Below are positions 9,174-44,834 of a stretch of DNA of 64,000 nt, one piece after another. Every line of letters starts with the position of its first letter. Within the stretch, counting starts at the first letter, position 1. A program made the position numbers and the translations under genes. The stretch lies in assembly GCA_034520965.1 (NCBI GenBank), contig JAXHMY010000003.1:352001-416000 (forward strand), read 5' to 3'. The DNA comes from Spirochaetia bacterium. GTDB lineage: Bacteria > Spirochaetota > Spirochaetia > DSM-16054 > Sediminispirochaetaceae. The notes beneath the pieces are model-generated. The model searched no databases. It worked only from the letters and a program-made list of their open reading frames with translations, and had not been told where the DNA came from.

Positions 9174-10990
9174 ATGCCGGAAAAACAGTCGGAAAACCCC
9201 AATCGCATCCCCGAGCGCCACGAAGTCCCCGACGAATACAAGTGGGACCTCTCCAAACTCTACCCCTCAAACAAGGAGTGGGAGCAGGGCCTCAAGGACC
9301 TAGAGCAGCGAATCGAAGGGGTGCAGCAGTTCCAGGGCAGCCTCGACCGCTCGGTGGCCCAGATCAAGCAGTGCCTCGAATACTTCAACGACACCGAAAT
9401 GCTGGAAGAGCGGCTGGGCTACTATGCCCACCTGCGAACCACCGAGGACGTGGGCAGCAGCGCCCACCAGGAGCGCTTCGCCCGCTACATGCAGGTAGCC
9501 ACCCGGCTCTCCGCGGCCACCAGCTATTTCACCCCAGAAATCCAGTCCATTCCCGAACAGACCATGCAGCAGTACCTGGCCGCCCCGGAGCTGGAAGACT
9601 ATAAAATCATGTTGGAAAAACTCCTGCGCTTCAAGGACCACGTGCTCTCCCAGAAAGAGGAAAAACTGCTGGCCCTGCAGGCCGAAGCACGTCAGACCCC
9701 GGAAAAGGCCTTCTCCGCCCTGACAAACGTGGATTTCGACTTTGGCCACATCGACACCCCCGATGGCCCCAAACCCCTCAGTCAGTCGACCTTCAGCTCC
9801 TTTATGATCAACCCCTCCCGCCAGGTGCGCCAGTCCGCCTACGAGCGGCTCTACCAAGTTTACGGCGACCATGTAAACAGCTTAGCCGCTCTGTATGACG
9901 GCAGCGTGCAGGACGATATCTACCGCTCCCGGGTGCGCGGCTACGACTCGGCCCGGCAGATGGCCCTTTTCCCGGACAAAGTTCCCGAGAGCGTTTACGA
10001 CAACCTTATCTCCGTGGTCCACGAAAACCTGCCCAGCCTGCACCGCTACTACGAGCTGCGCCGCAAGGCCCTGGGGCTTGAAAAACTGGCCCACTACGAC
10101 GTCTACGTGCCCATCGTGGGCGAGGTACAAACCAACTACCCCTACGAGCAGGCCGTGGACACCGTCACCGAGGCTCTGCATCCCCTGGGCGAGGAGTACC
10201 AAAACACCCTCAGACAGGGGCTCCTGGGCGGCTGGGTCGACCGCTACGAAAACCGGGGCAAGCGCTCCGGAGCCTTTTCCGCCGGCAGCTACGTAGGCGA
10301 CCCCTACATTCTGCTCAATTACCAGCCCACGGTCCTGCGCGACGTGTTTACCCTGGCCCACGAAGGGGGCCACTCCATGCACTCCTACTACAGCGCCCGC
10401 AACAACCCCTTCGCCCACTACAACTACACCATCTTCGAGGCGGAGGTCGCCTCTACCTTCAACGAGCAGCTCCTGGCCGAGCACCTGCTGGCCCATGCGG
10501 ACAATCCCAAAATGCAGGCCTACATCACCAACAAGCTGGTCGACGACTTTGTGGCCACCATTTCCGGCAGACCATGTTCGCCGAGTTCGAACACAGCGCC
10601 CACCACATGGTAGAGACCGGCCGCCCCCTCACCGTCGACTCCCTCCGCGCCGCCTACCGCGAACTGCTCCGCCGCTACTTCGGCCCCAAAGTCGACCTGC
10701 CCGAAGCCGCCGACATCGAATGCCTGCGCATCCCCCACTTCTACCGGGCCTACTACGTGTACAAATACGCCACCGGCCTCTCCGCCGCCGTTACCCTGGC
10801 CGCCCGTGTCCAAACCGGCGGCCCCCAGGAACGCCGCGACTACCTCGCCTTCCTCAAATCCGGCGGCAGCCGCTACCCCCTGGAATCGCTCCAGCTGGCC
10901 GGGGTCGACATGAGCTCCCCCGAGCCCATTCGCAGCGCCATGGAAAACTTCAACCGCCGCCTCCACCAGCTCGAGCAGCTTATTCTTTAA
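9174..10990 (+). CDS. pepF: Oligoendopeptidase F (frameshift near 10562)
   Basis: WDLSKLY, GKRSGAFS, TLAHEGGHSMH zinc motif, AEVAST; second frame continues FRQTMFAEFE...IPHFY; one T missing from a T run. Confidence 0.93.
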
Positions 10991-11070
10991 TAAGCCCCGC
11001 CACCAGGCTCTTATTCTAGGAAATCTGCAGAGGGTCAGGGGCCGCCCCCAACCCGTCAGTCCCTCCGGTC

Positions 11071-11096
11071 CCCGGGCACTTTTACAAGTGCCCGGG
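11071..11096. terminator. Hairpin between convergent genes
   Basis: CCCGGGCACTT-TTAC-AAGTGCCCGGG; no long U tract. Confidence 0.5.
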
Positions 11097-11140
11097 AGCC
11101 GTGATCAGCCGCCGGCCCAGCGCCTCAGGCCGTAACAGCC

Positions 11141-12181
11141 TTATTCATCTTCTTGAAAGCCTCCCAGCAGCTGTTCAAGATGCTCGGCTTCCACTGTGCT
11201 GCCGGCCACCAGCTCCAAGAACTGACGCTCCAGCAGCTGCAGCTCCTCCCCAGCCCGCTCTGCAAACTTTTCAATACCGATTTTACTGGGGATAGTATCA
11301 AAACGGTTCTTGATCATATTCACACTAATAAAAATCGGCACCCAACGATACATCTCCAAAGTATCCGGCACGGGACGCAGACCGGTTTTTTTCACCGCCC
11401 CCATCCCTTCCCGAATCGCCTTTATCATCAACCGCAACAAATCCCTCCGTGCCGCCAATTGGTCCAGCGTCCCTCCGGCTAATTGCAGAGCCGCTATCAT
11501 CGGCAGTCGCACCAGAGCCTGGCTTAAAAAAACAGCCTCCATCACCCCCGCAGCATGCACGGGAATCCCGGAACCGCGTAACAGCTGATAGGCCGCCTCC
11601 CTGTTCTTAGGATGCGTCGGGTTCTCCGGATTTTCCGAGTTCTCCGGAGCCTTGCCGCGCAGCCGCCCAAGAGTAACTCCCCAGGGCTCGGTATCATCCT
11701 CTCCCCGCTCACAAAACTCCACCACAACTCCCGACTCATCCCGCTCGAGCACCACCGACATCCCGGGAAAACCGAACACCACCCGTTCCTCCCCCAGCTT
11801 CTTAGCCCACTCACTCATCCCTTTTACATAGCTGCCGACCATGAGCACAGGAGGCTCGACCTCCGAGGGGTCTGCAACTTTTTTAATAAGCGGCAGGGCC
11901 GCTTCTACCTGATGTGCCCGCAGCACCACAATCAGCAGATCCAAAGCCCCCACTGCCTCACGGCTCAAACCGGGCTCCTCCGTCCCGGCTCCCACATCCA
12001 GCACCGGCAGCTTTGCCCTCAGCACCTGACCGGTCAGCGCATCCTTCAGCCTCACCCCTTCCCGGGCAATCTGAGCCGCCCGTGTACCACGGTCGAGCAG
12101 CAGCACCTCGTGCCCCCCGGAATCCAATTTATAGCCAAAATAACTGCCCAGGGCCCCTGCCCCGATTATCCCAATACGCAT
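11141..12181 (-). CDS. Ketopantoate reductase (ApbA/PanE) family protein
   Basis: N-terminal IGAGALGS Rossmann motif, DLLIVVLR segment, family-typical length. Confidence 0.75.
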   Translation of the reverse strand: MRIGIIGAGALGSYFGYKLDSGGHEVLLLDRGTRAAQIAREGVRLKDALTGQVLRAKLPVLDVGAGTEEPGLSREAVGALDLLIVVLRAHQVEAALPLIKKVADPSEVEPPVLMVGSYVKGMSEWAKKLGEERVVFGFPGMSVVLERDESGVVVEFCERGEDDTEPWGVTLGRLRGKAPENSENPENPTHPKNREAAYQLLRGSGIPVHAAGVMEAVFLSQALVRLPMIAALQLAGGTLDQLAARRDLLRLMIKAIREGMGAVKKTGLRPVPDTLEMYRWVPIFISVNMIKNRFDTIPSKIGIEKFAERAGEELQLLERQFLELVAGSTVEAEHLEQLLGGFQEDE

Positions 12182-12193
12182 TCCCCTCTCCTT

Positions 12194-12820
12194 CTACCCA
12201 TCTAAATACTTCAAAATAATCCGCCACTCATCCAGCTTATCCTGCCAACGCTTATGGCGCCGGGTTGGAATCGGACTGGTGGAGGGAAGCCGCCGGAACT
12301 CCCGCTCTCTCAGCTCCGGCAGTTCCAAAAGCTCCGTCAGCTTCGACAGCTTCGATTTCTTAGAAAAATCCGCCGCATTCACCGCCTCGCTATACAATTC
12401 CTTCACTGCCCTATAAAAACCCTGCTCCGCTTTCCTCCCGTTAAACACCACCAGGCGGATACTCGGGTACTTTCGCAGCAGCCCCGGTACATCATTCGGT
12501 ATTGCCTCCCGAATCGACTGGTCCAGGCTCCCCTCTCTTCGACAACTATCAAATACATCCCACACCGCAATTCCGGCCTCACACAGCATCGCTGTGCGCC
12601 CCGCATAGCCCCCCGGCATCGGCCGGCCGAGCAGCTCACTCATAATCCTCCAAAAGTGGTTCTGCTGGTGCCCGTAATACTGTCCCAATTCTAAAGATTT
12701 CACACCCGGCATGCTCCCCAAAATAAGCACCCTCGGTTGTTCGCCGATAATCGGAGGAAAGCCGTAAATCATCTCTGCAGAATCTCCCTCAGCCGCCACT
12801 CTGTACCCCCCGCAGCTCAA
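12194..12820 (-). CDS. Uracil-DNA glycosylase superfamily, DNA-deoxyinosine glycosylase-like
   Basis: LILGSMPG, YYGHQQNHFW, GSLD, FNG, LPSTSP motifs; true start probably near 12772. Confidence 0.88.
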   Translation of the reverse strand: MSCGGYRVAAEGDSAEMIYGFPPIIGEQPRVLILGSMPGVKSLELGQYYGHQQNHFWRIMSELLGRPMPGGYAGRTAMLCEAGIAVWDVFDSCRREGSLDQSIREAIPNDVPGLLRKYPSIRLVVFNGRKAEQGFYRAVKELYSEAVNAADFSKKSKLSKLTELLELPELREREFRRLPSTSPIPTRRHKRWQDKLDEWRIILKYLDG

Positions 12821-13658
12821 TCAACCTTTTTCCGGCCGTCATGGCATCCTGTAAAAATTCCCTGTCGTTTTTATGCCCGCTGTGACGTATGGAACACTCC
12901 AGACACAGGGGTTTGCGGTACTCGGCAGCATCAAGAATTCTCATCACCCGCCGCCACTCAATATTCCCCCAAAACGGCGGGAGGTGATCATCCTTGTTGC
13001 CGAGGTTATCATGCAGATGCAAAGCCGCCAGGCGTCTCCCGCCGCCCTTCTCCGCCATTTCAACCACCTGCTCAAGTAAGTCTAATCCGTTCCCGGCCAT
13101 ATTCCCGTGCCCGGAGTCGTAGCAGATTCCCAGAAACTCAGGGGGATACTCCTCACACAAGGCAATCATGGCCTCCATATGCCCTGGGGTCGGCAAATTC
13201 TCAAGGGCAACCCTCACCCCGGCACTCCGCGCATCAGTTTCGAGCTCATCCAGCGATCTGCGGGCAGACTTCTTCCATTCATCCCCCGCTGCAACACGTC
13301 CCTCCGGCAAATGCAACACCACCGCATCTCCCCCCAGCTTCGCGGTCATTTCTATCCGGTTTTTTATCTGTCCTACTCCAGCCCGCCTGCGCAGTTCAAT
13401 CGGTGAACTCCAGTCGGAAAAAATTCCCACCGCCCCATGCAAATCGATCATGTCCAGTCCATGCCTCTCCAACATCTCCCCGATCCTTCGTACTTCCCGC
13501 GGCCGGTAGCGGTGCTCTCCCAGCCACTGATGGCACCAGTGCACGCCGGCAAATCCGGCCTGCCCTATCAGCTGCAAGTAGGGCTCGGGGTTGCCGATGG
13601 AGCGGGCATAGTCGGTGGTGATGGTTAGGTTAGGCATGGGGAAAGGATAAAGCAACAT
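12789..13658 (-). CDS. Sugar phosphate isomerase/epimerase family (AP-endonuclease-2 TIM barrel)
   Basis: VALEN, CYDSGH, LHLHDN..DDHLPP.G, LE motifs. Confidence 0.85.
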   Translation of the reverse strand: MLLYPFPMPNLTITTDYARSIGNPEPYLQLIGQAGFAGVHWCHQWLGEHRYRPREVRRIGEMLERHGLDMIDLHGAVGIFSDWSSPIELRRRAGVGQIKNRIEMTAKLGGDAVVLHLPEGRVAAGDEWKKSARRSLDELETDARSAGVRVALENLPTPGHMEAMIALCEEYPPEFLGICYDSGHGNMAGNGLDLLEQVVEMAEKGGGRRLAALHLHDNLGNKDDHLPPFWGNIEWRRVMRILDAAEYRKPLCLECSIRHSGHKNDREFLQDAMTAGKRLIELRGVQSGG

Positions 13659-13821
13659 CCCCTCCCTGTCAAAACAGTTGTACGAAGCTTGGTGCTATTG
13701 CCGCAGCACTGCAGAAATGCCTTCTCCCACCCACTTCAATTGCGGTTTTACACAAATACATACCTTTATGCTGAACAAAAACCAAATAAAAATAGACAAC
13801 ACCAATCTTCGTGAAACTGAA

Positions 13822-13850
13822 TTGACAAAAGTTGGACAATCGTGTAAATT
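13822..13850 (+). promoter_or_regulatory. sigma70 promoter of tRNA-Leu
   Basis: TTGACA-N17-TAAATT about 20 bp upstream of the tRNA. Confidence 0.65.
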
Positions 13851-13871
13851 TGCACTCGTTCAATTACACAC

Positions 13872-13956
13872 GCTGCAGTGGTGGAATTGGTAGACACGCT
13901 AGCTTGAGGGGCTAGTGGGCATTGCGCTCGTGAAGGTTCAAGTCCTTTCTGCAGCA
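13872..13956 (+). tRNA. tRNA-Leu(GAG)
   Basis: GCTGCAG/CTGCAGC acceptor stem, GGAATTGGTAGAC D arm, CTAGC-TTGAGGG-GCTAG anticodon arm, long variable arm, GGTTCAAGTCC T arm; CCA not encoded. Confidence 0.96.
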
Positions 13957-13987
13957 CTATAATACATTATATTGTAAGAGATTATAG

Positions 13988-14015
13988 ACCACCCTTAAAT
14001 ATAGGGTGGTTTTTT
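13988..14015 (+). terminator. Rho-independent terminator
   Basis: ACCACCCT-TAAATAT-AGGGTGGT followed by T run. Confidence 0.85.
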
Positions 14016-14170
14016 ATTTTGAAAATTGGCATAAGTGTACCAAATTTGTACCATATTCATTATAAAAAGGCCTTATCTACTTAAAAAAGAGGTAACTATT
14101 ATTACTATCGATTACCTGATGAAACCAATTTTCACTCCACAGGGCAAACAACAAAGGCAAAAGCTGAGAA

Positions 14171-14390
14171 ATGGGACGAATGGGAAAGGCGATCAAGGCT
14201 CACCGAGGAAACTTGTCGGATTTTCTGTATACCCTACGTTACCGAAAGAAAGACGGATACGTATTTCCAGGAGAGACGAATGTATTCTATCTCCACGATG
14301 ATAAAGACGAGGTAAGCGGCTTTATCGGTCTCATACGAGACGTGAGCACCCGATTAGAAATTAAAAGAAAGCTTGAGGAGAGCAAGAAGA
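14171..14390 (+). pseudogene. PAS/PAC domain fragment
   Basis: RYRKKDGYVFPGE...GFIGLIRDVSTR is a PAC motif; no intact gene. Confidence 0.55.
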
Positions 14391-14891
14391 ATCTCAGAAT
14401 ACCGCGACGATCAGTTTACCGGATCGCTAAAGACGGTAGTAGGACTCATGGTGCTGAAATATCTCAGCCGCCGGCTCGACGGGGAGGCGGCCCGGAGACT
14501 GGTCGAGACAATGTACAGGGAAGGTCCAGTGCCGCTTTATTTAAGGGAGTTCTACGACAAGTGCTACAGGGTGCTGTCTCAGGTGAAGGAGGAACAGGAG
14601 TACGAGCTGCTTCTTGGCAAACTGGTTAGAGCAGGCTATACTAAAGAGAAGGAGAGAGCGATGACATACGCAGAAGCTGCTGAAAAAAGAGGGATACAAA
14701 GAGGTATGGAAAGGGGAATACAAAAGGGCGAACACAACACCCTTATCCGGCTGCTCGACAGGAAATTCAGCCTCAGCGAGGAGGAGAAAGAGCTGGTCCA
14801 CAACACCGAAAAGCTCGAGAAGATAGAAGCAGCCCTCGACGAGTTAGTCTTCGCCGAGAGGAAAGAACAGGTCCTCGCGCATCTGAAGTAG
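14373..14891 (+). pseudogene. C-terminal fragment of Rpn/YhgA-like (DUF4351-type) protein
   Basis: MTYAEAAEKRGIQRGMERGIQKG repeat, then LIRLLDRKF...IEAALD tail; N-terminus absent. Confidence 0.6.
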
Positions 14892-15020
14892 TAGCCTCCC
14901 CCGCAGGGACACGGGTTGTTACGTCCTACTTTCTGCTGTGTGTGATACTCCTGTAATATAGAAGGATAAAAATACATCCGAACAATTGCAGCTCGGGTTT
15001 ACACAATATTGTTCGAGGAG
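14890..15020 (-). pseudogene. SEC-C motif fragment
   Basis: YCVNPSCNC and KVGRNNPCPCGG in different frames. Confidence 0.45.
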
Positions 15021-15213
15021 TTCTTCAGTTCTGCAATGATGATTCGGGTAGCTGATCGACGGCGGTGAACATTTTCTGCTGACGGTGTGCTTCATCGCTT
15101 GCAGCTTCCCAATATTTCCTGTCCTTTTCTGCAAGCTCAGAATTATTTCCAAATGAGATTTGTATTTTATTACTTCTGTCTATTCCACAATTATGCTTTA
15201 ATCAAATATATTT

Positions 15214-15510
15214 TTATACTTTTGGAAATCTAATGGACATGGATGTCCCGTTGGAAGAGTCTACTGTAAGTTCTCCATCTATCTGTCTGGCAAGAATATT
15301 AACCAAACTGAGCCCAAGGGAACCGGCATTTTCCATAGAGAAGTCTTCAGGCAACCCTTTCCCATTGTCCTCAACAGACAGTGCAATAAACCCATCATCA
15401 ATATTCTTTAGCATAATCAGAATTTTTCCCGTATCCATACCTTCAAAACCATGTTTTTGAGCATTGGTAATCAACTCATTCACAATAATACCACAGGGTA
15501 CTGCTTGAAT
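15214..15510 (-). pseudogene. C-terminal HATPase part of IS-interrupted sensor kinase
   Basis: IIVNELITNAQKHGF, VEDNGKGLP, SLGLSLV; joins in frame to 18109-20196 when the IS is removed. Confidence 0.9.
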
Positions 15511-15703
15511 TGGAAAATCCGGCGCAAACCTGCCACCAATTCCGGATTTAATCTGCCGGGCATTCCGGTTTAAACCTGCCACCCATTCCGGGTTTAAACT
15601 GCCACTTTTTAGATGATTTCCGGAATCATTTACTGCTCTTCAATCGACCTCAAAAATAAGGCATGGTACCACCCTGAGAGCATGATCAACCAGGAGGAGT
15701 ACA

Positions 15704-17256
15704 TTGTCAAAAAAGAGGACGAGTATGAGCAAAATACGGGATATAATGCGGCTTACCGAAGCTTCGTTGAGCCAGCGGCAGATTTCAAACGCACTGAATA
15801 TCTCACGACCGGTAGTTGCAGACACTATTGAGAAAATTCGAGGTGCTGATCTAACCTACACGCAGATAAAATCATTGCCAGACTCTGAGCTGAGCCAGTA
15901 TCTTGCCACAGCCAGAAAGCCTTCCAGTAAATCGATGGAATTAAAGGAACAGTTTCCTTACTATGCAAAGGAGCTGAAAAAAACAGGTGTAACTCTTACG
16001 CATTTATGGGAAGAGTACCTGGCTCAGAATCCGGAGGGTCTTAAGTACACACAGTTTGCTACCATTTTCAGCAGTGGCGCAAGGATGAGAAACTCTCAAT
16101 GCATATCGAGCATAAGGCCGGCGATAAAATGTTTGTAGATTATACCGGGAAGAAGATGGTCCTCACCGATAGAAAAACCGGTAGGACCAGGGAAGTCGAA
16201 GTCTTCGTGGCTATTCTACCGGCAAGCCAACTGACTTATGCTGAAGCTTCCGAAAGTCAAACCCAGGAAGATTTTGTCCGATCAAATGAGCGAGCCCTCC
16301 GCTACATAGGAGGCGTTCCCGCCGCTATTGTTCCCGATAACTTGAAGGCGGGGGTACTCAAGGCAAGTAAATATGAGCCGGACCTTAACCCGATGTTTGC
16401 TGACTTTGCCGAACACTATCGGACAGCGATTCTCCCCGCCAGAGCTCGAAAACCAAAAGACAAAGCCCATGTCGAAAACGCGGTAAAAATTATCTATCAA
16501 CGGGTGTTTGCCCCACTCCGTAGTAAAACCTTTTACACCATCGAAGAGCTCAATTTCGCGATCAAGGACCGGCTCGATGACCATAATAACCGAAAGCTGA
16601 CAAAAATGACAGTTTCTCGGCGTGAACTCTTCGAAGAAGTCGAAAAGAGTGAGCTTATAACCTTGCCAGTCCATCCGTATCCCATCAAACATTTCCAGCC
16701 GAATAGCCTTGTTCAGTTCAATTACCACGTGGAGCTCAAGGAAGACAACAATTACTATAGTGTCCCTTATATTCTGAAGGGACAACGAGTAAAACTCATC
16801 TACGATGAGAGGAGCGTCTCAATATACCATAACAATATCCGCATAGCCCTTCATAAAAGAAGCCGTCGCCGCAGTAAATACACCACAGTGAGAGAGCATA
16901 TGCCAAAGAAACACCGATTTGATGAGAAGTGGAATCCAGAGAAGCTGAAGTGGTGGGCTGGGAATGTTGGCAATGATACTCTGCGGGCGATTACCCATAT
17001 TCTTGAATCCAAATCTCATCCGGAGCAGGCTTATAAATCCTGTATGGGCATACTATCTCAGGCAACAACACATGGTCATGAGATCCTTAATATGGCCTGC
17101 CGAATAGCCTGCAACGCAGAACGGATACACTACGGTTTTATTTCAAAGGAGGTTGAAAAACTTAAAAAACAGTACCAACAGGAGGAGGAGCAGAAACAGT
17201 ACAGTCTGCTTCCCGCCATTCACGAAAATGTTCGTGGTGAAAAATATTATAAGTAG
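15704..17256 (+). CDS. istA: IS21 transposase (frameshift near 16057)
   Basis: HTH, MFVDYTG, VPDNLK, PKDKAHVE DDE motifs; frames join as YTQFCYHFQQW if one T is restored. Confidence 0.92.
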
Positions 17257-31863: not shown

Positions 31864-32087
31864 TGTTCCCCGCCAGCAGTTCCTTCCAGTAAACCTGCAA
31901 ACTTGCCGATAGATATTTCTGTAGGCTGACAGAAAGTTTTTCTCCCTCGCCTGCCAACGAAAAAAGGGTGCCCAACTCCGGTAAGAGTTAACGGGCACCC
32001 GGTAACTGTGAAAGCACCACAGTCATATATACTCTACCCGAATTTACACAAGAATGCCACCTCCTGTATGCACATTATCCCTGTCCA

Positions 32088-32648
32088 TTGTGCGGAAAGG
32101 TTCATCCGCTGACGATTCACACGTCCCCGCGACGCAGTTGGTTTGACGCCAATGGTGAACGCGTATGGATTCGGGTAATAGTAATCAAGTGTGCCCATGC
32201 CCGGGCGGCCGGAAAACAATACACCAAGCGTCTGCTGCCGGATTTCCTTATCCCCTATAGTCCTATCCGGTTGGATCGTGTGCTGGAAGCTGAACGCAGC
32301 CGCCGAGAGGAAGGTGCGAGACTTGAGGACTGTAGTTATATTCTGGGGTGTCTGGAACTGCGGACCGTCCGAAAACATCTCAAGCGCCTGCATACCGCAG
32401 CAGCCTCAGTTGCTTTGCAGTTATCCGAGTACCTGGCACATATCCCGCAGTATGCTCGTTTGCCGGAACCGCAACCGGGGCAGTGCACAGTCCTTCGACT
32501 GAATAGCCTATACCACCGAACCACTGAGGCTGCCGGTGCAGCAGGCCGCCCGGTGACCAGTCTGCGGCAATCCCTGCAGGAACAGTGGTGGAAGCTTGTC
32601 GGTAAACCACCAACCAGTTGTGTATCACGTGTTGCCCGTCCCCCATGA
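32088..32648 (+). CDS. DUF6431-like zinc-finger protein
   Basis: CPLCG (begins just upstream of the TTG), IKC, LLPDFLIPY motif; start codon uncertain. Confidence 0.65.
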   Translation: MCGKVHPLTIHTSPRRSWFDANGERVWIRVIVIKCAHARAAGKQYTKRLLPDFLIPYSPIRLDRVLEAERSRREEGARLEDCSYILGCLELRTVRKHLKRLHTAAASVALQLSEYLAHIPQYARLPEPQPGQCTVLRLNSLYHRTTEAAGAAGRPVTSLRQSLQEQWWKLVGKPPTSCVSRVARPP

Positions 32649-32680
32649 TATATCCAGGGTACTACTGTGAAGGAGGCCCT

Positions 32681-33387
32681 ATGAACGGGAATGACTGGAA
32701 GAATCTGAATTCGAAGGAACTCGACGCATTTCAACGCCGCGTGGCGCTGGTTGAGACGTTGCTGGATGACAACATCGATGAAGCCGTGCGGCAGGAGGTG
32801 CGGCGTGCCTACCTCTATACCCAGGGAGTCAGTGACCGGACGATCCGTAACTACATTCGTCGGTATCGCATGCAGGGACAGCATGGACTGCTGTTCTATC
32901 GTCACACACGATCGGCTTCACCGCGTATTCATGACGAAGCTCTCCGTAACAAAATTCTGGAGCTGATAGAGGAACGGCCGCGACGAACGGTTCCTCAGCT
33001 GCGCAGACTGCTCACCGTTGATGAACAGTTTGCCCCACGCATCGAACTGGTCTCGGATCGTACCATCTACCGGTTTTTGTATGAGCAGGGCCTTACTCAG
33101 AAGGCTCGGATGGCCAAGCGGATACACGGAGACAGGGCGGCATTTCATCGCTTCGAAGCAAGCTGCTCTCTGCAGCTGGTGCAGGGAGATGCCCGTGACG
33201 GAATATGGCTGCCGGCACAGCCGGGCGACACAAAGACCCGGAAAACTTATCTGTTTGCCTGGGTTGATGACTATTCGCGGCGAATCCTGCATGCCCAGTA
33301 TTTCTGGGATGAAAAGCTGCCCAGAATGGAAGCGACCTTCAAGACCATGGTGCTGCGTTGGGGAATACCGGAAAAGCTGTACCTCGA
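32681..33387 (+). pseudogene. DDE transposase (rve/Mu-like), 5' part
   Basis: AAGGAGG RBS; HTHs (SDRTIRNY, SDRTIYRF), LVQGD, YLFAWVDDYSR, PEKLYLD. Confidence 0.92.
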
Positions 33388-33479
33388 TTATGCCGAAGAA
33401 AGCGTAATGCCGAAAACGATGTGCTTCTACTTTCTTTGAAACGAAATAGCCGCAAAAACTTCGGCATAATGTTTTGTGG

Positions 33480-34511
33480 CTATAATCCGCACAGCCTCCG
33501 CAAGGTTTCCTCGTTCTTCCATGACGGCACTTCACCGGCGATATCAGGATCAGCCGTTTCCAGTGCGTTGCGGAGCATGTCGGTACTTGCGGTAGCGTAA
33601 ATCTCGGTAGTGGTAATACTTGCGTGTCCGAGAAATTCCGCGACATAGGATAGCGGCATGCCGGCGCGATAAAGGTGCATCGCTCGAGTGTGCCTGATAA
33701 GGTGCGGGTTAACTCTATCAGGAACATCCGGACATGTTTTCGCGGCCCTTTCACCACACGTTTTGAGTATTACGCTAACCGCATCGGTAGACAGCGAGCG
33801 CGGATTACCCCGGTGTATGGAATAGAATAGTGGAGCAGAGTTTACAGACACCTCGTTAGGATGGAACCGGTCTATATACTTCCTCAAGTGTGAAACGGTC
33901 TTGTCCATAAGGGGGATGCTTCTTGGTTTGTTTCCTTTTCCCGTCACGATCACGAACGGATCGCCTACTGCCAGGTTAAGATCCCCAACTTTCAGGTCCA
34001 CAAGCTCCTGCACTCTACATCCAGTGTCGTATAGCATAATCAACAACATTCCGTCTCTCGCAGCCTTCGTGGTTTTTCCACTTGCTTGTGCCAATATGGC
34101 TTTCATTGCCGGTTCCGACAAGTATTGAATCGTCGACTTCGGAACCTTCATCATGGGAACGCTTTTGATCTCCAGATACATGGAATATAGACGCAGGTCC
34201 TCGTCGGCACAGTACTTGAGAAACGACTTGATCGCAGAAAGTCTGAGATTGCACGTTGTTGATCGGCAGTTTCGTCGGCGCAACCATTGGAGAAACTCAA
34301 CGACTGTCGTTCTGTCGAAATGGCTGAACGAGATAGCAGAGAATTCGGTTTGGCACGTCTCCTTGAGAAACGTGCAGTACGTTGCGATCGATTGCCTGTA
34401 TGATTCGGATGTTTTCGGGCTGAGGCAACGGATTCTGGGTAGATAGACGGTAAGGTACGAACGAACATACTGCCAAAATTGCCGTTCAGATTTCCTGTTA
34501 TTACTGGTCAT
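33480..34511 (-). CDS. Tyrosine recombinase (third RIT gene)
   Basis: YDTGCRVQE, GKGNKPR, HLIRH, LGH, TTEIY. Confidence 0.95.
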   Translation of the reverse strand: MTSNNRKSERQFWQYVRSYLTVYLPRIRCLSPKTSESYRQSIATYCTFLKETCQTEFSAISFSHFDRTTVVEFLQWLRRRNCRSTTCNLRLSAIKSFLKYCADEDLRLYSMYLEIKSVPMMKVPKSTIQYLSEPAMKAILAQASGKTTKAARDGMLLIMLYDTGCRVQELVDLKVGDLNLAVGDPFVIVTGKGNKPRSIPLMDKTVSHLRKYIDRFHPNEVSVNSAPLFYSIHRGNPRSLSTDAVSVILKTCGERAAKTCPDVPDRVNPHLIRHTRAMHLYRAGMPLSYVAEFLGHASITTTEIYATASTDMLRNALETADPDIAGEVPSWKNEETLRRLCGL

Positions 34512-35463
34512 GGCGAAACTCCGGAATGAGATTTTCTGTACTTCGCAGCTTCTCGCGAAACGTGTGGAAGAACTCGGGTACGAGGTGAAGGTAGTAGTCG
34601 GTGCTCTGCAGACACGCGTGCCCCATGTACGTACTGAGATAGGGAAGCATGCTATTGAGATCGGCGCCGGCGACTACCCATCTATTCAGATTAGTGAGTG
34701 CAAAGTGATGTCTGAAATCATAGGCACGAGCCTTATTCCCGTACCCGCCTCCAGGCACTGCCGTATTCCAGATTTTCCGAAACGCTATACCCAGACTTGA
34801 TTGCGCATAGCAGCGCGATGGTGTCGTGGGGAAAAAGAAGATTCTGTCCTGGTATACGGTCGATATCTGCGTATTGTACGTTTGCAAGAGTTCCAGGAGA
34901 TCGCGACCTATTGGTATTCGACGGCTTCGTTCTTGTTTCGAAGCAACGATATCGATCTGCCCGAGATGTAAATCAACATCCTCGACCCGCAACGTTCGCG
35001 CTTCACACGTGCGCAAACCGCAGCAATACAGCAGTCGGAACAAGACCGGCAGGACCCAATGTCGAATGGGGAACGAACCGTGAGGTTTCAAACTGTCGCA
35101 GGCATGAAAAAATGAGAAAATCTCATCTTTGGTGAAGAAATGCGGTACATAGCGCGCAGTTTTACGGTGCAACCCGGTGGGAAGCACAAACGCTTCGGAA
35201 ATCCCAATCGATTGGAGGTATTTGCCGAACTCTCGTACCGGTGATATCCGTACTTTGTGGGATGCCGGTTTTTCGTTTGTAGCTTGTGCCCACACAAGGA
35301 TCAGCTCTCGGGAAAAACATCCGTCTTCCGCATGCTTGCACGCATATCGATCAAACCGCCACAGCGAATACTCGGCGCTTTCATAGCGGTATCCTGCCGC
35401 TCGTTTCAATGCGACAAAATCCTTAAGATCGGAGGCGAAAACACTGCAATACCGGGGGCTCAT
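34501..35463 (-). CDS. Tyrosine recombinase (second RIT gene)
   Basis: CGLRTCE, YDFRH (His replaced by Tyr), LSTYMGH, TDYY. Confidence 0.95.
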   Translation of the reverse strand: MSPRYCSVFASDLKDFVALKRAAGYRYESAEYSLWRFDRYACKHAEDGCFSRELILVWAQATNEKPASHKVRISPVREFGKYLQSIGISEAFVLPTGLHRKTARYVPHFFTKDEIFSFFHACDSLKPHGSFPIRHWVLPVLFRLLYCCGLRTCEARTLRVEDVDLHLGQIDIVASKQERSRRIPIGRDLLELLQTYNTQISTVYQDRIFFFPTTPSRCYAQSSLGIAFRKIWNTAVPGGGYGNKARAYDFRHHFALTNLNRWVVAGADLNSMLPYLSTYMGHACLQSTDYYLHLVPEFFHTFREKLRSTENLIPEFRHDQ

Positions 35464-36702
35464 TTCAGTTCTCCAAGAGACAGTGGAATCCCGGCAAGAT
35501 TAAGCGCACACTCTCGTAAGCGGTTTTGATCCGTTGATAGATATACTTCGGTAGATGTCTTGTTGGAATGGCCAAGCATTGACGCTATAGTCGTTACCGC
35601 TACCCCTTTCGCCAACAGTCTGCGAGGCGACGGAATGACGGATCAGGTGTATCCCTTTTCTCTCGGAACCGAGTCTGATTCCCGCTTGGTGAAAGGCCTT
35701 GCGCACTATAGCGTAGCACGGTGAATGACCGGATAACGGTCTGAACGGCGCCTGGACACGAAGAAATACATGCCGGCTGTCCACTTGGGGTCTCTCTTCG
35801 AGAATATAACGACTGAGCGCATTCCCGACGTCGACGGTCAATGGAATCCGGAAAGGCTTCCGAGTCTTCACCTGGGGTATAACGATGCTTTCGTGTATCC
35901 ACTCGATATCCGACAATTTCATATTCACGATGTCGATCGCCCTCAAGCCGGTACGGAGTGCCAATGTGATAATGGCGTTATCCCGTAGCGACACCATATC
36001 CGTCTGCAATAGACGCTTGAGAGCTGAATTTTCTTCTTCCGAAAGAATCGGTACGATCGGATTCTTCCTGACACAACGTGATGGAACCGCGCGGACAAGA
36101 CGCGGCTCATCTTCGGCGTATGTAAGAAACGAACGAACGTGTGAGGCGACGGTCCGTATACTTGTAGATTGGTAGGTGGCCAGTAGATGTCGGAAGAATA
36201 GGGGTACAGAAGCAGGAGGTACCGTTGACAGGTTGTGGTACCCGCTATTTTCCAGAAACATGAGGAACTGCCGTATGATGTTTCTTGATGACTGTATCGT
36301 GTTTGAGCTCTTGCCACGTTGCCGCAGATCACCAAGAAATTCGGAATACAGCAGGACGAACTCCTCCGCTTCCGGCCCTCGAGGAACCGCCAAACCACCG
36401 TATTTAGGCCATGCAACTGATCCCGATGCGGCATAATCCCGCAGTATGAAAGCGGCCCGCCTCAGGTGATTTCTTCGTGAACGCCCATATTGTCCCTTTT
36501 GGTAGCATTCCTCGACGTGCTCCATGAAACGTTCATGCATCGTCTCGGTGTAAGAACTCATTTCCTCCATTTCGAAAAAGCACCAAATTCGTGCGAATGC
36601 CCGTTCATACTGATAAATTGATCCGGTACACAGCCCGAGTTCGGGTAGTCGTTCGAGTACTCCCTGAAAAAGGTCACTGGATAGTAAAGAATTCGTTTCC
36701 AT
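35460..36702 (-). CDS. Tyrosine recombinase (first RIT gene; +1 frameshift near 35621)
   Basis: AAGGAGG RBS, TGLRAID, HLIRH; shifted frame supplies MLGH...TEVY and a stop overlapping the next ATG. Confidence 0.9.
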
Positions 36703-36866
36703 CTGATTGTCCTCCTTGAATGTATGTGGACGGTATGTCCAGCTAACATTATAGAAGGGTCTCAATCAGGGAAAAACATTATGCCGAAGTTTTTGCGGCT
36801 ATTTCGTTTCAAAGAAAGTAGAAGCACATCGCTTTCGGCATTACGCTTTCTTCGGCATAATCAAGG

Positions 36867-36886
36867 TTATCCCGAATTCGGGATAA
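36867..36886. repeat. 20-bp perfect palindrome at RIT end
   Basis: TTATCCCGAA-TTCGGGATAA, flanked by TCAAGG and CCTCGA. Confidence 0.9.
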
Positions 36887-36892
36887 CCTCGA

Positions 36893-37574
36893 CAACGGCA
36901 ATGTCTATATTGCGAAACAATTTGCACGTATCCTGGCCGATCTGAAAATCAAAAAGATTCATCATGGTCCCTATCAAGCGTGGGCAAAAGGCAAAGTTGA
37001 GTCGGTTATGAAAACCCTCAAGCAAGAGTTTCAGGCCGAGGCACAACAGGCAGGGTTTGTCACCCTTGAAGAGCTCAATACCGCCTTGTGGGCATGGATC
37101 GATGTCGAATACAACCGGCGTAGTCACAGCACCACCGGCGAACCACCTGAGCAACGCTTTGTGAACGGACTACCCGAAACCCATCGCCGGGTGGAAGACC
37201 TGCAATGGTTTGAGAACCTGTTTCTGCAGCAGGACACCCGCAAAGTAACCAAATACGGAGACGTCAAGCTTGAGGGGAATCTGTATAAAACCACTGCCAG
37301 GCATGGGACAGTGGTCGAGGTGCGCTACAATCCGTTTGATCTGAAAAAGGTCTGGCGGTTCGAAAAAGGATTGGCTGTTGAAACCTTGGGGGTCAAAAAG
37401 CTTGTCCATGACCAGGCCAAAACCATCGCCGAAGAAAGCCCGGATGCGCCGCAGAAGACAAGCCGTGACTCGGCTCGCTATTTCGAAAAGCTACGCGAGA
37501 GTCAGGCTGCGCTCACTGCCGGGCAACAGAAGGTAAGCTTTAGCAAACTCAAGGGGCAGGAGGCAACACAATGA
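36893..37574 (+). pseudogene. DDE transposase, 3' part
   Basis: NGNVYIA...PYQAWAKGKVE...YNRRSHS...VRYNPFDL; in frame with 32681-33387 after RIT removal. Confidence 0.92.
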
Positions 37575-38356
37575 TCGACACCATTCTGAATCACTACGGG
37601 TTTTCCCGGCTGCCCTTCGGCAAGAATATTTCTGCTGATGAAATCTATCCCACCGAGAGCATGAACGAGGCCGGTGCCATGATTGAGCTGGGACTGGAAA
37701 GCGAGGATATTATCCTCATTACCGGTCCAATCGGCTGCGGAAAATCGCTGGCGGTGCGGCGGGTGGCCGGACAGCTGGATACCAACCGATACCAGCTTAT
37801 CTATCTGCGCGGCAGTATTGCCTCAGCAGCCGAGCTGTACAAAATGGTGCTGTTGGGAATGAAAATTGATCCTCCACACTCAATCGGGAAGGCCAAGCCG
37901 GCATTCTTTGCGGCAGCCAGCGAAGCAGCCCGCAAGTCGGTAGTGATCCTGGATGATGCCCAGGATGCCTCCCCCGATGCCCTGTTAGCACTCAAGGCAA
38001 TGACCAACTTCGAATCGGATTCGCGCACCCGAATCACCTTCATTCTGGCGGGGCAACCGGAGCTTCTTACCACTCTTGGCTATGCTCACTTCGATTCGCT
38101 GCGGGCCCGTATCCGGTTGTCGAACCACATGTCGGGTATGAGCCTTAGTGAGACCTGCGAGTACATCGACCATGGCCTACAGGTTGTGAAGCGGCAGGAA
38201 AAGCTTTTTTCAGACAACGCTAAAATGGAGATATTCAAACGCACCAATGGTATCGCCCGCCATATAAATTCGCTGTGCTATAAGGCCATTGTGCAGGGAG
38301 CCATCGACAAGAGGAGCATCATCGACACTGCCGACCTGCCGCAGGATGTGATATAA
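37571..38356 (+). CDS. ExeA/TnsC-like AAA ATPase
   Basis: HYGFSRLPF, GPIGCGKS Walker A, ILDDAQ Walker B, ILAGQPEL, GIARHIN. Confidence 0.9.
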   Translation: MIDTILNHYGFSRLPFGKNISADEIYPTESMNEAGAMIELGLESEDIILITGPIGCGKSLAVRRVAGQLDTNRYQLIYLRGSIASAAELYKMVLLGMKIDPPHSIGKAKPAFFAAASEAARKSVVILDDAQDASPDALLALKAMTNFESDSRTRITFILAGQPELLTTLGYAHFDSLRARIRLSNHMSGMSLSETCEYIDHGLQVVKRQEKLFSDNAKMEIFKRTNGIARHINSLCYKAIVQGAIDKRSIIDTADLPQDVI

Positions 38357-38381
38357 TTGTCACAGAGTTCCGGCAGTTGCC

Positions 38382-38420
38382 AGGAAGTTCCGCGGGTATA
38401 CCGCTGGAACTTCCTTTTTT
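38382..38420 (+). terminator. Rho-independent terminator inside transposon right end
   Basis: AGGAAGTTCCGCGG...CCGCTGGAACTTCCT-TTTTT. Confidence 0.75.
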
Positions 38421-38475
38421 CAGGCGGCGGAAATCAGCCGTGGCAAGGCGGGGAAGGAACTGCTGGCGGGGAACA

Positions 38476-43605: not shown

Positions 43606-43738
43606 ACTTTCCCCCCCCCCCGTTTTTTTTTTTGCATTTATTATTCGTAAGAACAATAATAATTGGGCCTGGATCCACTGATCGATCAGTGTTTGTAGTG
43701 CGACCAAGAAAAACAGCTCGATTATTCCATACTTTTAA

Positions 43739-43904
43739 AAGGCACTACAGGTTTTTGCGGAGCAAAATACCTTGCGCATACCCCATATAAGGCACTACAG
43801 GTTTTTGCGAAGCAAAATACCAGCTCTACCCCATATAAGGCACTACAGGTTTTTGCGAAGCAAAATACCAGCTCTACCCCATATAAAGAACTACAGGTTT
43901 TTGC
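43739..43904. repeat. Tandem repeat, 48-50 bp unit, 3 full copies plus a partial one
   Basis: AAGGCACTACAGGTTTTTGCGAAGCAAAATACCAGCTCTACCCCATAT; internal hairpin TTTTGC-GAA-GCAAAA. Confidence 0.92.
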
Positions 43905-43991
43905 CAATTCTTTATCCCAATTTCTCCGATATTTCCGGGTTCCGGCTTGTGCTTCTCAATTATTTTTCCTATTGTTAATAAATGGTGACAT

Positions 43992-44834
43992 GTGAGTACT
44001 TCAATAGTTAAGAAAATACGATGGATAACTGCTTTACTGGGACCCCTCATCTTGCTGCTCGTCTCCTGCATGTTGACCCCGGTGAGCGAAGTCCCTGGAA
44101 CCGGAACACGAAAAATCTCCGTGATGACCTGGAACGTACGGTTCGACACTCCTGACACCCCTGCGGAGACACTCGAGGCGAAGCTCACACACATTCGGGA
44201 GGCGGGTGCCGATATCGTGCTGCTGCAGGAGGTCTTGACGATCGAAGACAAGGTGGTGAGGGAACCGGCGCGTTTCCGCCGTCTGCTGCAGAAAGAGGCG
44301 GAAGAGTACGGTATGATCACGGCAGAAGGAGCCTCGAAAACCGGCGGCTCGAACATGATACTCTACAACCGGGAGCGTTTCGTACCTATAGATCAGGGCA
44401 TCCGGTGGCTTTCTTCGACCCCCGAGATTCCCGATTCGACCTCCTATGGCAACACAATTGCCCGAAACTTCGTCTGGGCGGTGCTCTACGACAACAATCG
44501 TAATAGGCTTTTCACGACGGTTACCACCCATTTGTCACCCGAATCCGCGGAGACAAACGAACGCTGCGCCAAACAGCTCATCGGATTTGTATCTGATATC
44601 GCCGGTATCAAGATCATCGGTGGAGATTTCAACAGTCAAAGGGGAAGCACCCCATATCAGACAATGATAAATGTCTATCGTGATGCGGTTGATGCAGGAG
44701 CGACACTGGCTACGATGCCCGTACAGATCGACTACATTTTCACATCTTCCGGAGTGACGGTCAGCGATGGTATGGCGATCCATGCGGAAGGGTTGAGTGA
44801 TCACCGTCCCGTGTTTTGCGCGGTTGACTGGTGA
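43992..44834 (+). CDS. Endonuclease/exonuclease/phosphatase family lipoprotein
   Basis: Lipobox LVSC, VMTWNV, LQE, THL, GDFN, IDYIF, SDHRPV. Confidence 0.9.
   Translation: MSTSIVKKIRWITALLGPLILLLVSCMLTPVSEVPGTGTRKISVMTWNVRFDTPDTPAETLEAKLTHIREAGADIVLLQEVLTIEDKVVREPARFRRLLQKEAEEYGMITAEGASKTGGSNMILYNRERFVPIDQGIRWLSSTPEIPDSTSYGNTIARNFVWAVLYDNNRNRLFTTVTTHLSPESAETNERCAKQLIGFVSDIAGIKIIGGDFNSQRGSTPYQTMINVYRDAVDAGATLATMPVQIDYIFTSSGVTVSDGMAIHAEGLSDHRPVFCAVDW

Follow-up and report, generated by a model that had tools for sequence, protein, structure and literature searches.

RIT elements, in which three tyrosine recombinase genes stand in the order ritA-ritB-ritC (Van Houdt 2012, PMC3414803; Janssen 2010, PMC2864759), are described in the excerpts of that literature used here as ending in 28-29 bp inverted repeats (IRs) with an overlapping palindrome, features that do not suit the usual core and arm sites (PMC3414803), and imperfect palindromes of 47 and 51 bp have been reported at their ends (PMC5737581). 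Their movement had not been reproduced in the laboratory as of 2023 (PMC10214605), and the same excerpts (PMC3414803 and others) give no crossover points. SEs (strand-biased circularizing integrative elements) and Tn554 obey a left-to-right 6-bp rule (PMC10214605), and the element analyzed here appears to resemble them in its 6-bp spacer, in having the target hexamer on the left and the element's own on the right, in carrying away the donor's left hexamer and in keeping the donor. SE and Tn554 differ in having one joint and one carried spacer and in their genes (IntA, Tfp, IntB and Srap in SE; TnpA, B and C in Tn554), whereas in the RIT element a palindrome would give two sites, a hexamer would pass through two carried positions and orientation would flip. 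A likeness of another kind is offered by IntDOT of CTnDOT, a tyrosine recombinase tolerant of overlap mismatches, for which 1-2 matching bases at the first site of cleavage are enough (PMC2817482), and heteroduplex spacers are described for Tn916 (PMC10214605). Both systems, however, employ a single integrase and one attachment site on a conjugative element and exchange both strands, whereas the RIT products look strand-biased.

The window, by which we mean the whole 64,000-nucleotide stretch of a Spirochaetia bacterium contig that was analyzed, contains a feature that is real and belongs to a RIT element of 3499 bp (33388-36886) with 88-bp terminal IRs that differ from one another by 1 mismatch. 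The element lies within a transposase gene of another mobile element, and its parts are as follows.

31864..38475, plus strand: host element with a DUF6431-like ORF, a DDE-type transposase and an AAA ATPase, delimited by 24-bp terminal IRs.
31864-31887 and 38452-38475: terminal IRs of the host element, 24 bp, a repeat in the window sequence.
32681..33387, plus strand: 5' part of the host transposase (HTH_32), cut within a Y-L-D-N-G motif; from domain and paralogue comparison.
33382..33387, plus strand: left hexamer L, CCTCGA, probably the host gene's own six bases.
33388..33475, no strand: 88-bp terminal IR next to ritC; the arm motif stands at IR positions 1, 18 and 73.
33480..34511, minus strand: ritC, tyrosine recombinase of 343 aa with R-H...H...Y motifs; ORF and PF00589.
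34501..35463, minus strand: ritB, tyrosine recombinase of 320 aa with R-H...H...Y motifs; ORF and PF00589.
35500..36765, minus strand: ritA, tyrosine recombinase of 421 aa, frameshifted in the window copy; ORF and PF00589.
36773..36860, no strand: 88-bp terminal IR on the ritA side, the inverted partner of 33388-33475.
36861..36866, minus strand: inner spacer, TCAAGG (CCTTGA on the minus strand), equal to the outer spacer of a flipped copy on contig C8 of the same genome.
36867..36886, no strand: palindrome P, 20 bp, perfect in the window sequence.
36887..36892, plus strand: outer spacer O, CCTCGA; from the window sequence and comparison of copies.
36893..37574, plus strand: 3' part of the host transposase (Mu-transpos_C); from domain and paralogue comparison.
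37571-38356: AAA ATPase gene of the host element.

Along the direction of the host gene the order is thus L (CCTCGA), IR, genes, IR, inner spacer, palindrome and outer spacer. The sequence-only reading, which had described the right end as IR-TCAAGG-palindrome-CCTCGA and the arm motif as recurring three times per 88-bp IR, proved accurate in each sequence detail, the 10-bp motif standing at IR positions 1, 18 (with one mismatch) and 73 (inverted). The arm of the IR and that of the palindrome face each other in inverted orientation across a 6-bp spacer and agree in 9 of 10 bases, so the inverted arms and 6-8 bp spacer that characterize lambda- and Cre-type sites are present as 10-bp arms around 6 bp. 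From this arrangement and from the comparison of copies we infer that the palindrome comprises two back-to-back recombinase arms, one per spacer, that the outer spacer is carried by the element and was the spacer of the present insertion, and that the inner spacer would both record the previous target and serve the site of the next move. That L is the native hexamer is indicated in another family by an empty allele and sibling copies. A computed fold of the right end (z -5.4) mirrors no more than the visible palindromes.

The host element has two paralogues in this genome (window 31864-38475; contig C8, about 9269-15918), with a RIT inside both; its ends read TGTTCCCCG...CGGGGAACA, and no obvious target duplication was seen at either. 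The empty site encodes L-Y-L-D-N-G with CTC or CTT alike. Judged by eye from the flanks, most RIT targets appear to be conserved motifs (D-N-G and Y-F-E of transposases, H-E-L-x-H, W-Q-x-H, P-C-Q, L-R-H of recombinases), and each RIT family keeps to one type of target. Elsewhere in the window, four 48-nt direct repeats, two of them identical, lie at 43729-43922 upstream of an ORF at 43992.

PF00589 was found in all three adjacent, co-oriented minus-strand genes, which overlap briefly, and the R-H...H...Y residues were read in RitB and RitC of the window and in RitA of the C8 copy. The sizes of 421, 320 and 343 aa and the tblastn order agree with public trios, the labels A, B and C having been assigned by position and size; these are the only recombinase ORFs between the IRs, and by ORF content the SE set of intA, tfp, intB and srap is absent. 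The frame of ritA in the window is shifted ahead of the last catalytic motifs by one extra base near 35622, which is missing from the C8 copy, where ritA reads through, and from runs X1, X3 and X5; the C8 ritC lacks one base, matching window position 33983, that both the window and X1 have. The extra base in ritA and the missing base in ritC are probably assembly errors. Contig C8 has two more tyrosine recombinase genes at about 171996-175500, which lack the RIT arm motif. The locus resembles described RITs in its three overlapping tyrosine recombinase genes, its length of ~3.5 kb, its terminal IRs, its identical copies and its insertion in a transposase.

The second copy, on contig C8, is 99.9% identical to that of the window, with two single-base indels between the outer IR ends, and interrupts the same codon of a paralogous host whose DNA is 67% identical; identical copies at different sites, by which RIT mobility is judged, are therefore present in this genome. 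In the C8 copy the genes are flipped while the palindrome remains on the 3' side of the host gene, L and the inner spacer (reverse strand) both read CCTCGA and the outer spacer reads CCTTGA, so that the inner and outer spacers are swapped between the two copies. The two copies therefore represent two openings of the junction IR-spacer-P-spacer-IR, and with this the central prediction of the sequence-only reading holds: the comparison supports two back-to-back sites, both used, with opposite gene orientation relative to the target. Its statement that the unused spacer, read on the other strand as CCTTGA, is synonymous with the CTC codon of the target was likewise borne out in the window. In C8, though, a CCTTGA spacer faces a CCTCGA left hexamer, from which it follows that full identity was not needed, and the need for spacer identity that the sequence-only reading had assumed is not supported for this element. 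By the hand-on rule set out below, the C8 copy would descend from the window copy or one like it, and the CCTTGA of the window would be the hexamer of the previous host. Contigs of run X1, which may share its origin with this assembly, hold a C8-type right flank beside the palindrome and also a C8-type left end; on one of them a C8-type flank is joined via the palindrome to the window's flank, a structure that a graph assembler could make from two flipped copies.

We found the pattern of arm, six bases and palindrome at no fewer than 122 genome loci from many phyla, at least 128 metagenome stretches and 19 viral stretches; these sets were selected by the pattern itself and are no guide to prevalence. 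Each match was listed with a length of 34 bases (a 20-bp palindrome), even in a scan permitting other lengths, a reversed control pattern matched in 1 of 25 genomes, and the layout is not due to chance. Among Rhizobium plasmid copies found by their genes, 14 of 15 have exactly one palindrome; ten distant trios yielded a palindrome with its own arm sequence in 6 (one imperfect, one with two), none in 2, and 2 were truncated. A DNA search of 100 related genomes recovered no full RIT copy and fragments in 3 only; when 301 genomes of one order were scanned with the pattern, 8 had a match, and a single family could be used. Bases 5 and 16 of the palindrome are paired in 288 of 306 ends, with more variation at its centre, and inner and outer spacers are equal in 120 of the 306. 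For the counts below we used 115 complete single-palindrome elements (113 fetched and the two of this genome), which are not mutually independent. This set excludes 14 two-palindrome ends, 4 elements in which RIT genes were not detected, and ends whose left hexamer could not be read.

Some ends depart from the common form. At one RIT end (L093:732-777) two palindromes stand in tandem with a 6-bp spacer between them; at another locus (L174/L175; G104 C1 2786000-2824900) one RIT has inserted into the R-H motif of a second RIT's ritB, and 15 kb from this nested RIT a palindrome stands alone between ritB-like and ritC-like 3' halves. Five loci (L158, L188, L189, L149, L169) have the same ends without a detectable RitA, RitB or RitC match, those three with both ends measuring 2.2-2.3 kb, and are possibly non-autonomous derivatives or belong to other recombinases; longer RITs carry extra DNA between the IRs (L170-L173, 5.8 kb; L165-L168, 4.1 kb). 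We considered several forms as trapped intermediates and rejected them: other origins are possible for solo palindromes between two right target halves (L004, L140/L175, L187), and recombination between flipped copies can account for the two-palindrome elements (14 ends, including L016, L055, L232, L238, L258 and L291) and for two complete plasmid records, one with two palindromes and two right target halves (L382), the other palindrome-less with two left target halves (L370). Because assembly collapse and recombination between flipped copies can yield solo, double or missing palindromes, such forms were kept out of the evidence.

Comparison of copies within families gives a well-supported rule for the fate of the spacers, under which a child would have the hexamer of its target on the left, the left hexamer of its parent as inner spacer and the inner spacer of its parent as outer spacer. 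The rule was drafted from the first families with a gene flip, and the opening of the same joint at the other site, without a flip, was permitted later. It links 28 of 35 possible parent-child pairs in 15 multi-copy families (50 copies, the pair of this genome included) and leaves 7 unexplained, whereas 1000 within-family shuffles of the spacers gave a mean of 9.7 links (sd 2.1, maximum 16); the copies of a family are not independent, several of the genomes are MAGs, and G108 and G112 show flanks shuffled among their copies. Ten families had their left ends read only once the rule was fixed, and in these 17 of 22 links were recovered. The chain L167-L166-L165 of genome G111 agrees with differences of 1, 1 and 2 SNPs, and a fourth copy, L168, which is 7-9 SNPs off, is unlinked. 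Since the rule fits most links, the spacers would record earlier targets, as the sequence-only reading had suspected. The SE-type 6-bp rule, by which the target's hexamer comes to lie on the left and the donor's left hexamer is carried, would thus be followed here with an extra step via the inner position.

The same rule reversed in time links 25 of 35 pairs, so its direction needs other evidence, which consists of one clean empty allele, one partial case and a sibling count. An empty allele identical over 300+300 nt (L147 vs L356) has the left rather than the outer hexamer of L147; empty alleles that match the right flank of L150, a partial case covering the right flank only, differ from its outer spacer; and among same-orientation pairs the inner and outer spacers are common and L different in 9, the reverse in 2. 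Two copies, L374 and L376, have matching flanks and the same L with different outer spacers. For the empty allele of L088, the closest full-length match in a plasmid search reached only 92.5%.

The left hexamer and the outer spacer are identical in 40 of the 115 elements and differ, by up to 5 bases, in 75, and the identity between partners that lambda- and Cre-type recombination requires is accordingly not seen. By position, identity runs.68,.74,.75,.56,.93 and.95, against.33,.29,.26,.37,.40 and.42 for shuffled pairs. Where inner and outer spacers differ (78 cases), L is closer to the outer in 35 and to the inner in 36, with 7 ties, and a choice of site by overall spacer match is rejected. 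Where the two spacers differ in their last two bases, L agrees there with the outer spacer in 11 of 16 cases, with the inner in 2 (one with tandem palindromes) and with neither in 3, and these comparisons suggest that a match to the target is likely needed at no more than the last 1-2 spacer bases. Positions 5-6 often coincide with the first two bases of a conserved codon, and since positions 1 and 4 usually fall at wobble bases, protein constraint may account for some of the conservation at 5-6. For 79 elements with a frame guessed, roughly, from open reading and GC3 (of the 113 fetched, 10 had short flanks and 24 no open frame), the outer spacer equals L in 28 and differs from it synonymously in 21 and non-synonymously in 30. 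The sequence-only reading had proposed two keys for synonymous codon variants, a view at odds with the 30 of 51 differences that are non-synonymous; the synonymy of the window's spacers reflects instead their having been taken from homologous genes.

Genes point toward the palindrome in 57 of the 115 elements and away from it in 58. In nine families with an asymmetric palindrome its orientation is locked to that of the genes in 32 of 34 copies; the two exceptions, L177 and L219, each with three equal spacers and flanks identical to those of a sister copy, look like in-place inversions. Opposite orientations therefore appear to arise by a flip of the whole element and not by later inversion. 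Children for which only a flipped parent is available number 17, those with only a same-orientation parent 4, and those with either 8. In a toy model that uses real family sizes and spacer pools drawn from the data, 50% flipping attained the observed ratio in 0.1-0.4% of runs and 70% in 3-7%, while 85% attained it commonly, as did 100% if some copies were lost. A free 50:50 choice of site is rejected under this model, and the simulated flip rates suggest that the inner site is strongly preferred; the notion of free integration via either site is disfavoured, since flips dominate. In G431 the five copies all have the same orientation and are linked by same-orientation steps, which an always-flip model fits only if copies were lost; we had regarded this family as proof of optional flipping, and the simulation with lost copies removed that proof.

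Tyrosine recombinases cut 5' of the spacer on each strand. The observed pattern would then need three top-strand cuts in the donor (target|L, P|O and IR|inner) and one bottom-strand cut in the target. One donor strand would likely be peeled out and joined to the target, and replication would likely complete both molecules with the donor left in place, a retention that coexisting parents and children imply. The inner site, consisting of palindrome arm, spacer and IR, would be a ready attachment site while the element is integrated, its use would reverse the orientation of the genes, a fresh inner site, available to the following hop, would be restored once the palindrome is joined to the left end, and each copy would carry its present target and the two preceding ones. 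A strand-biased, mismatch-tolerant transfer via the inner site, akin to that of SE and Tn554 with an extra site, is likely the mechanism; no intermediate appeared among the contigs of the runs, for which no joints were listed. We lean, by a modest degree, toward two back-to-back sites at the right end of which the inner is used next, producing a child that is usually flipped and whose spacers have shifted by one place. A stricter version, which we offer tentatively and rate at somewhat below even chance, is that RITs somersault, each hop moving one strand via the inner site of the integrated element with no free circle, with strict alternation and a three-place record (present, previous and one before); hops that always went through the inner site without a circle would alternate in orientation strictly from parent to child.

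The balance of the two orientations and the four children linked by same-orientation steps alone (in G431, strain 4B) are what would be expected of a free double-stranded circle, IR-spacer-palindrome-spacer-IR, copied out as in SE and integrated by either site, with the excess of flips a mere preference. Such a circle would follow the same spacer rule as those of SE, and 85% flipping in simulation fits the counts; equal use of both sites is rejected, however, so that an extra bias must be assumed, and in the excerpted account of a mobilome study the coverage of RITs was raised but circles could not be determined (PMC5737581), and we consider this explanation unlikely. Flipping is explained without an added assumption if the top strand of the donor forms a single-stranded circle whose junction folds, IR to IR and spacer to spacer with a hairpin tip in the palindrome, into a duplex site at which one strand exchange forces the flip. 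The attP of CTX phage and the attC of integrons are folded single-stranded sites of this kind. The pairing of palindrome positions 5 and 16 is consistent with such folding, and exonuclease-protected, possibly hairpin, RIT DNA has been proposed in the same excerpted study (PMC5737581). Covarying arms equally fit one protein that binds both, though, and the reciprocal join should require a match to the unused spacer too, whereas at the last two bases 11 of 16 targets agree with the used spacer alone, 7 of them missing even the last base of the unused one. This frequent mismatch weakens the hairpin form, which we regard as quite improbable.

Less still can be said for two fixed keys, each with full identity, kept for synonymous target codons. 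The synonymous spacers of the window, and the many ends with equal inner and outer spacers or with L equal to the outer spacer, speak for them, yet L and the outer spacer differ in most elements, often non-synonymously, the C8 copy is mismatched and spacers change among near-identical copies; we hold this explanation very improbable. Scarcely credible is insertion by the outer site alone, with the genes afterwards inverted, between the left and inner sites or between the IRs, to give the opposite orientations. L177 and L219 resemble such events, but inversion would uncouple the genes from the palindrome, to which they are locked in nearly all copies, and would leave the parent's inner spacer unmoved to the outside.

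The excerpts of the literature covered (including PMC3414803, PMC5737581, PMC10214605, PMC2817482, PMC2864759 and PMC8138268) contain none of the two-site reading, the hand-on rule or the flip bias, part of which Ricker 2013 may describe; nor did these excerpts yield another mobile element that combines two alternating attachment sites with a shifting record of targets. RIT elements are widespread, and their likely cut positions, moved strand, next site and spacer fates can now be named. Should the proposed mechanism be true, mismatch-tolerant, motif-targeted integration would join the repertoire of the tyrosine recombinases, and the spread of copies could be ordered within and between genomes, making genealogies of transposition legible.
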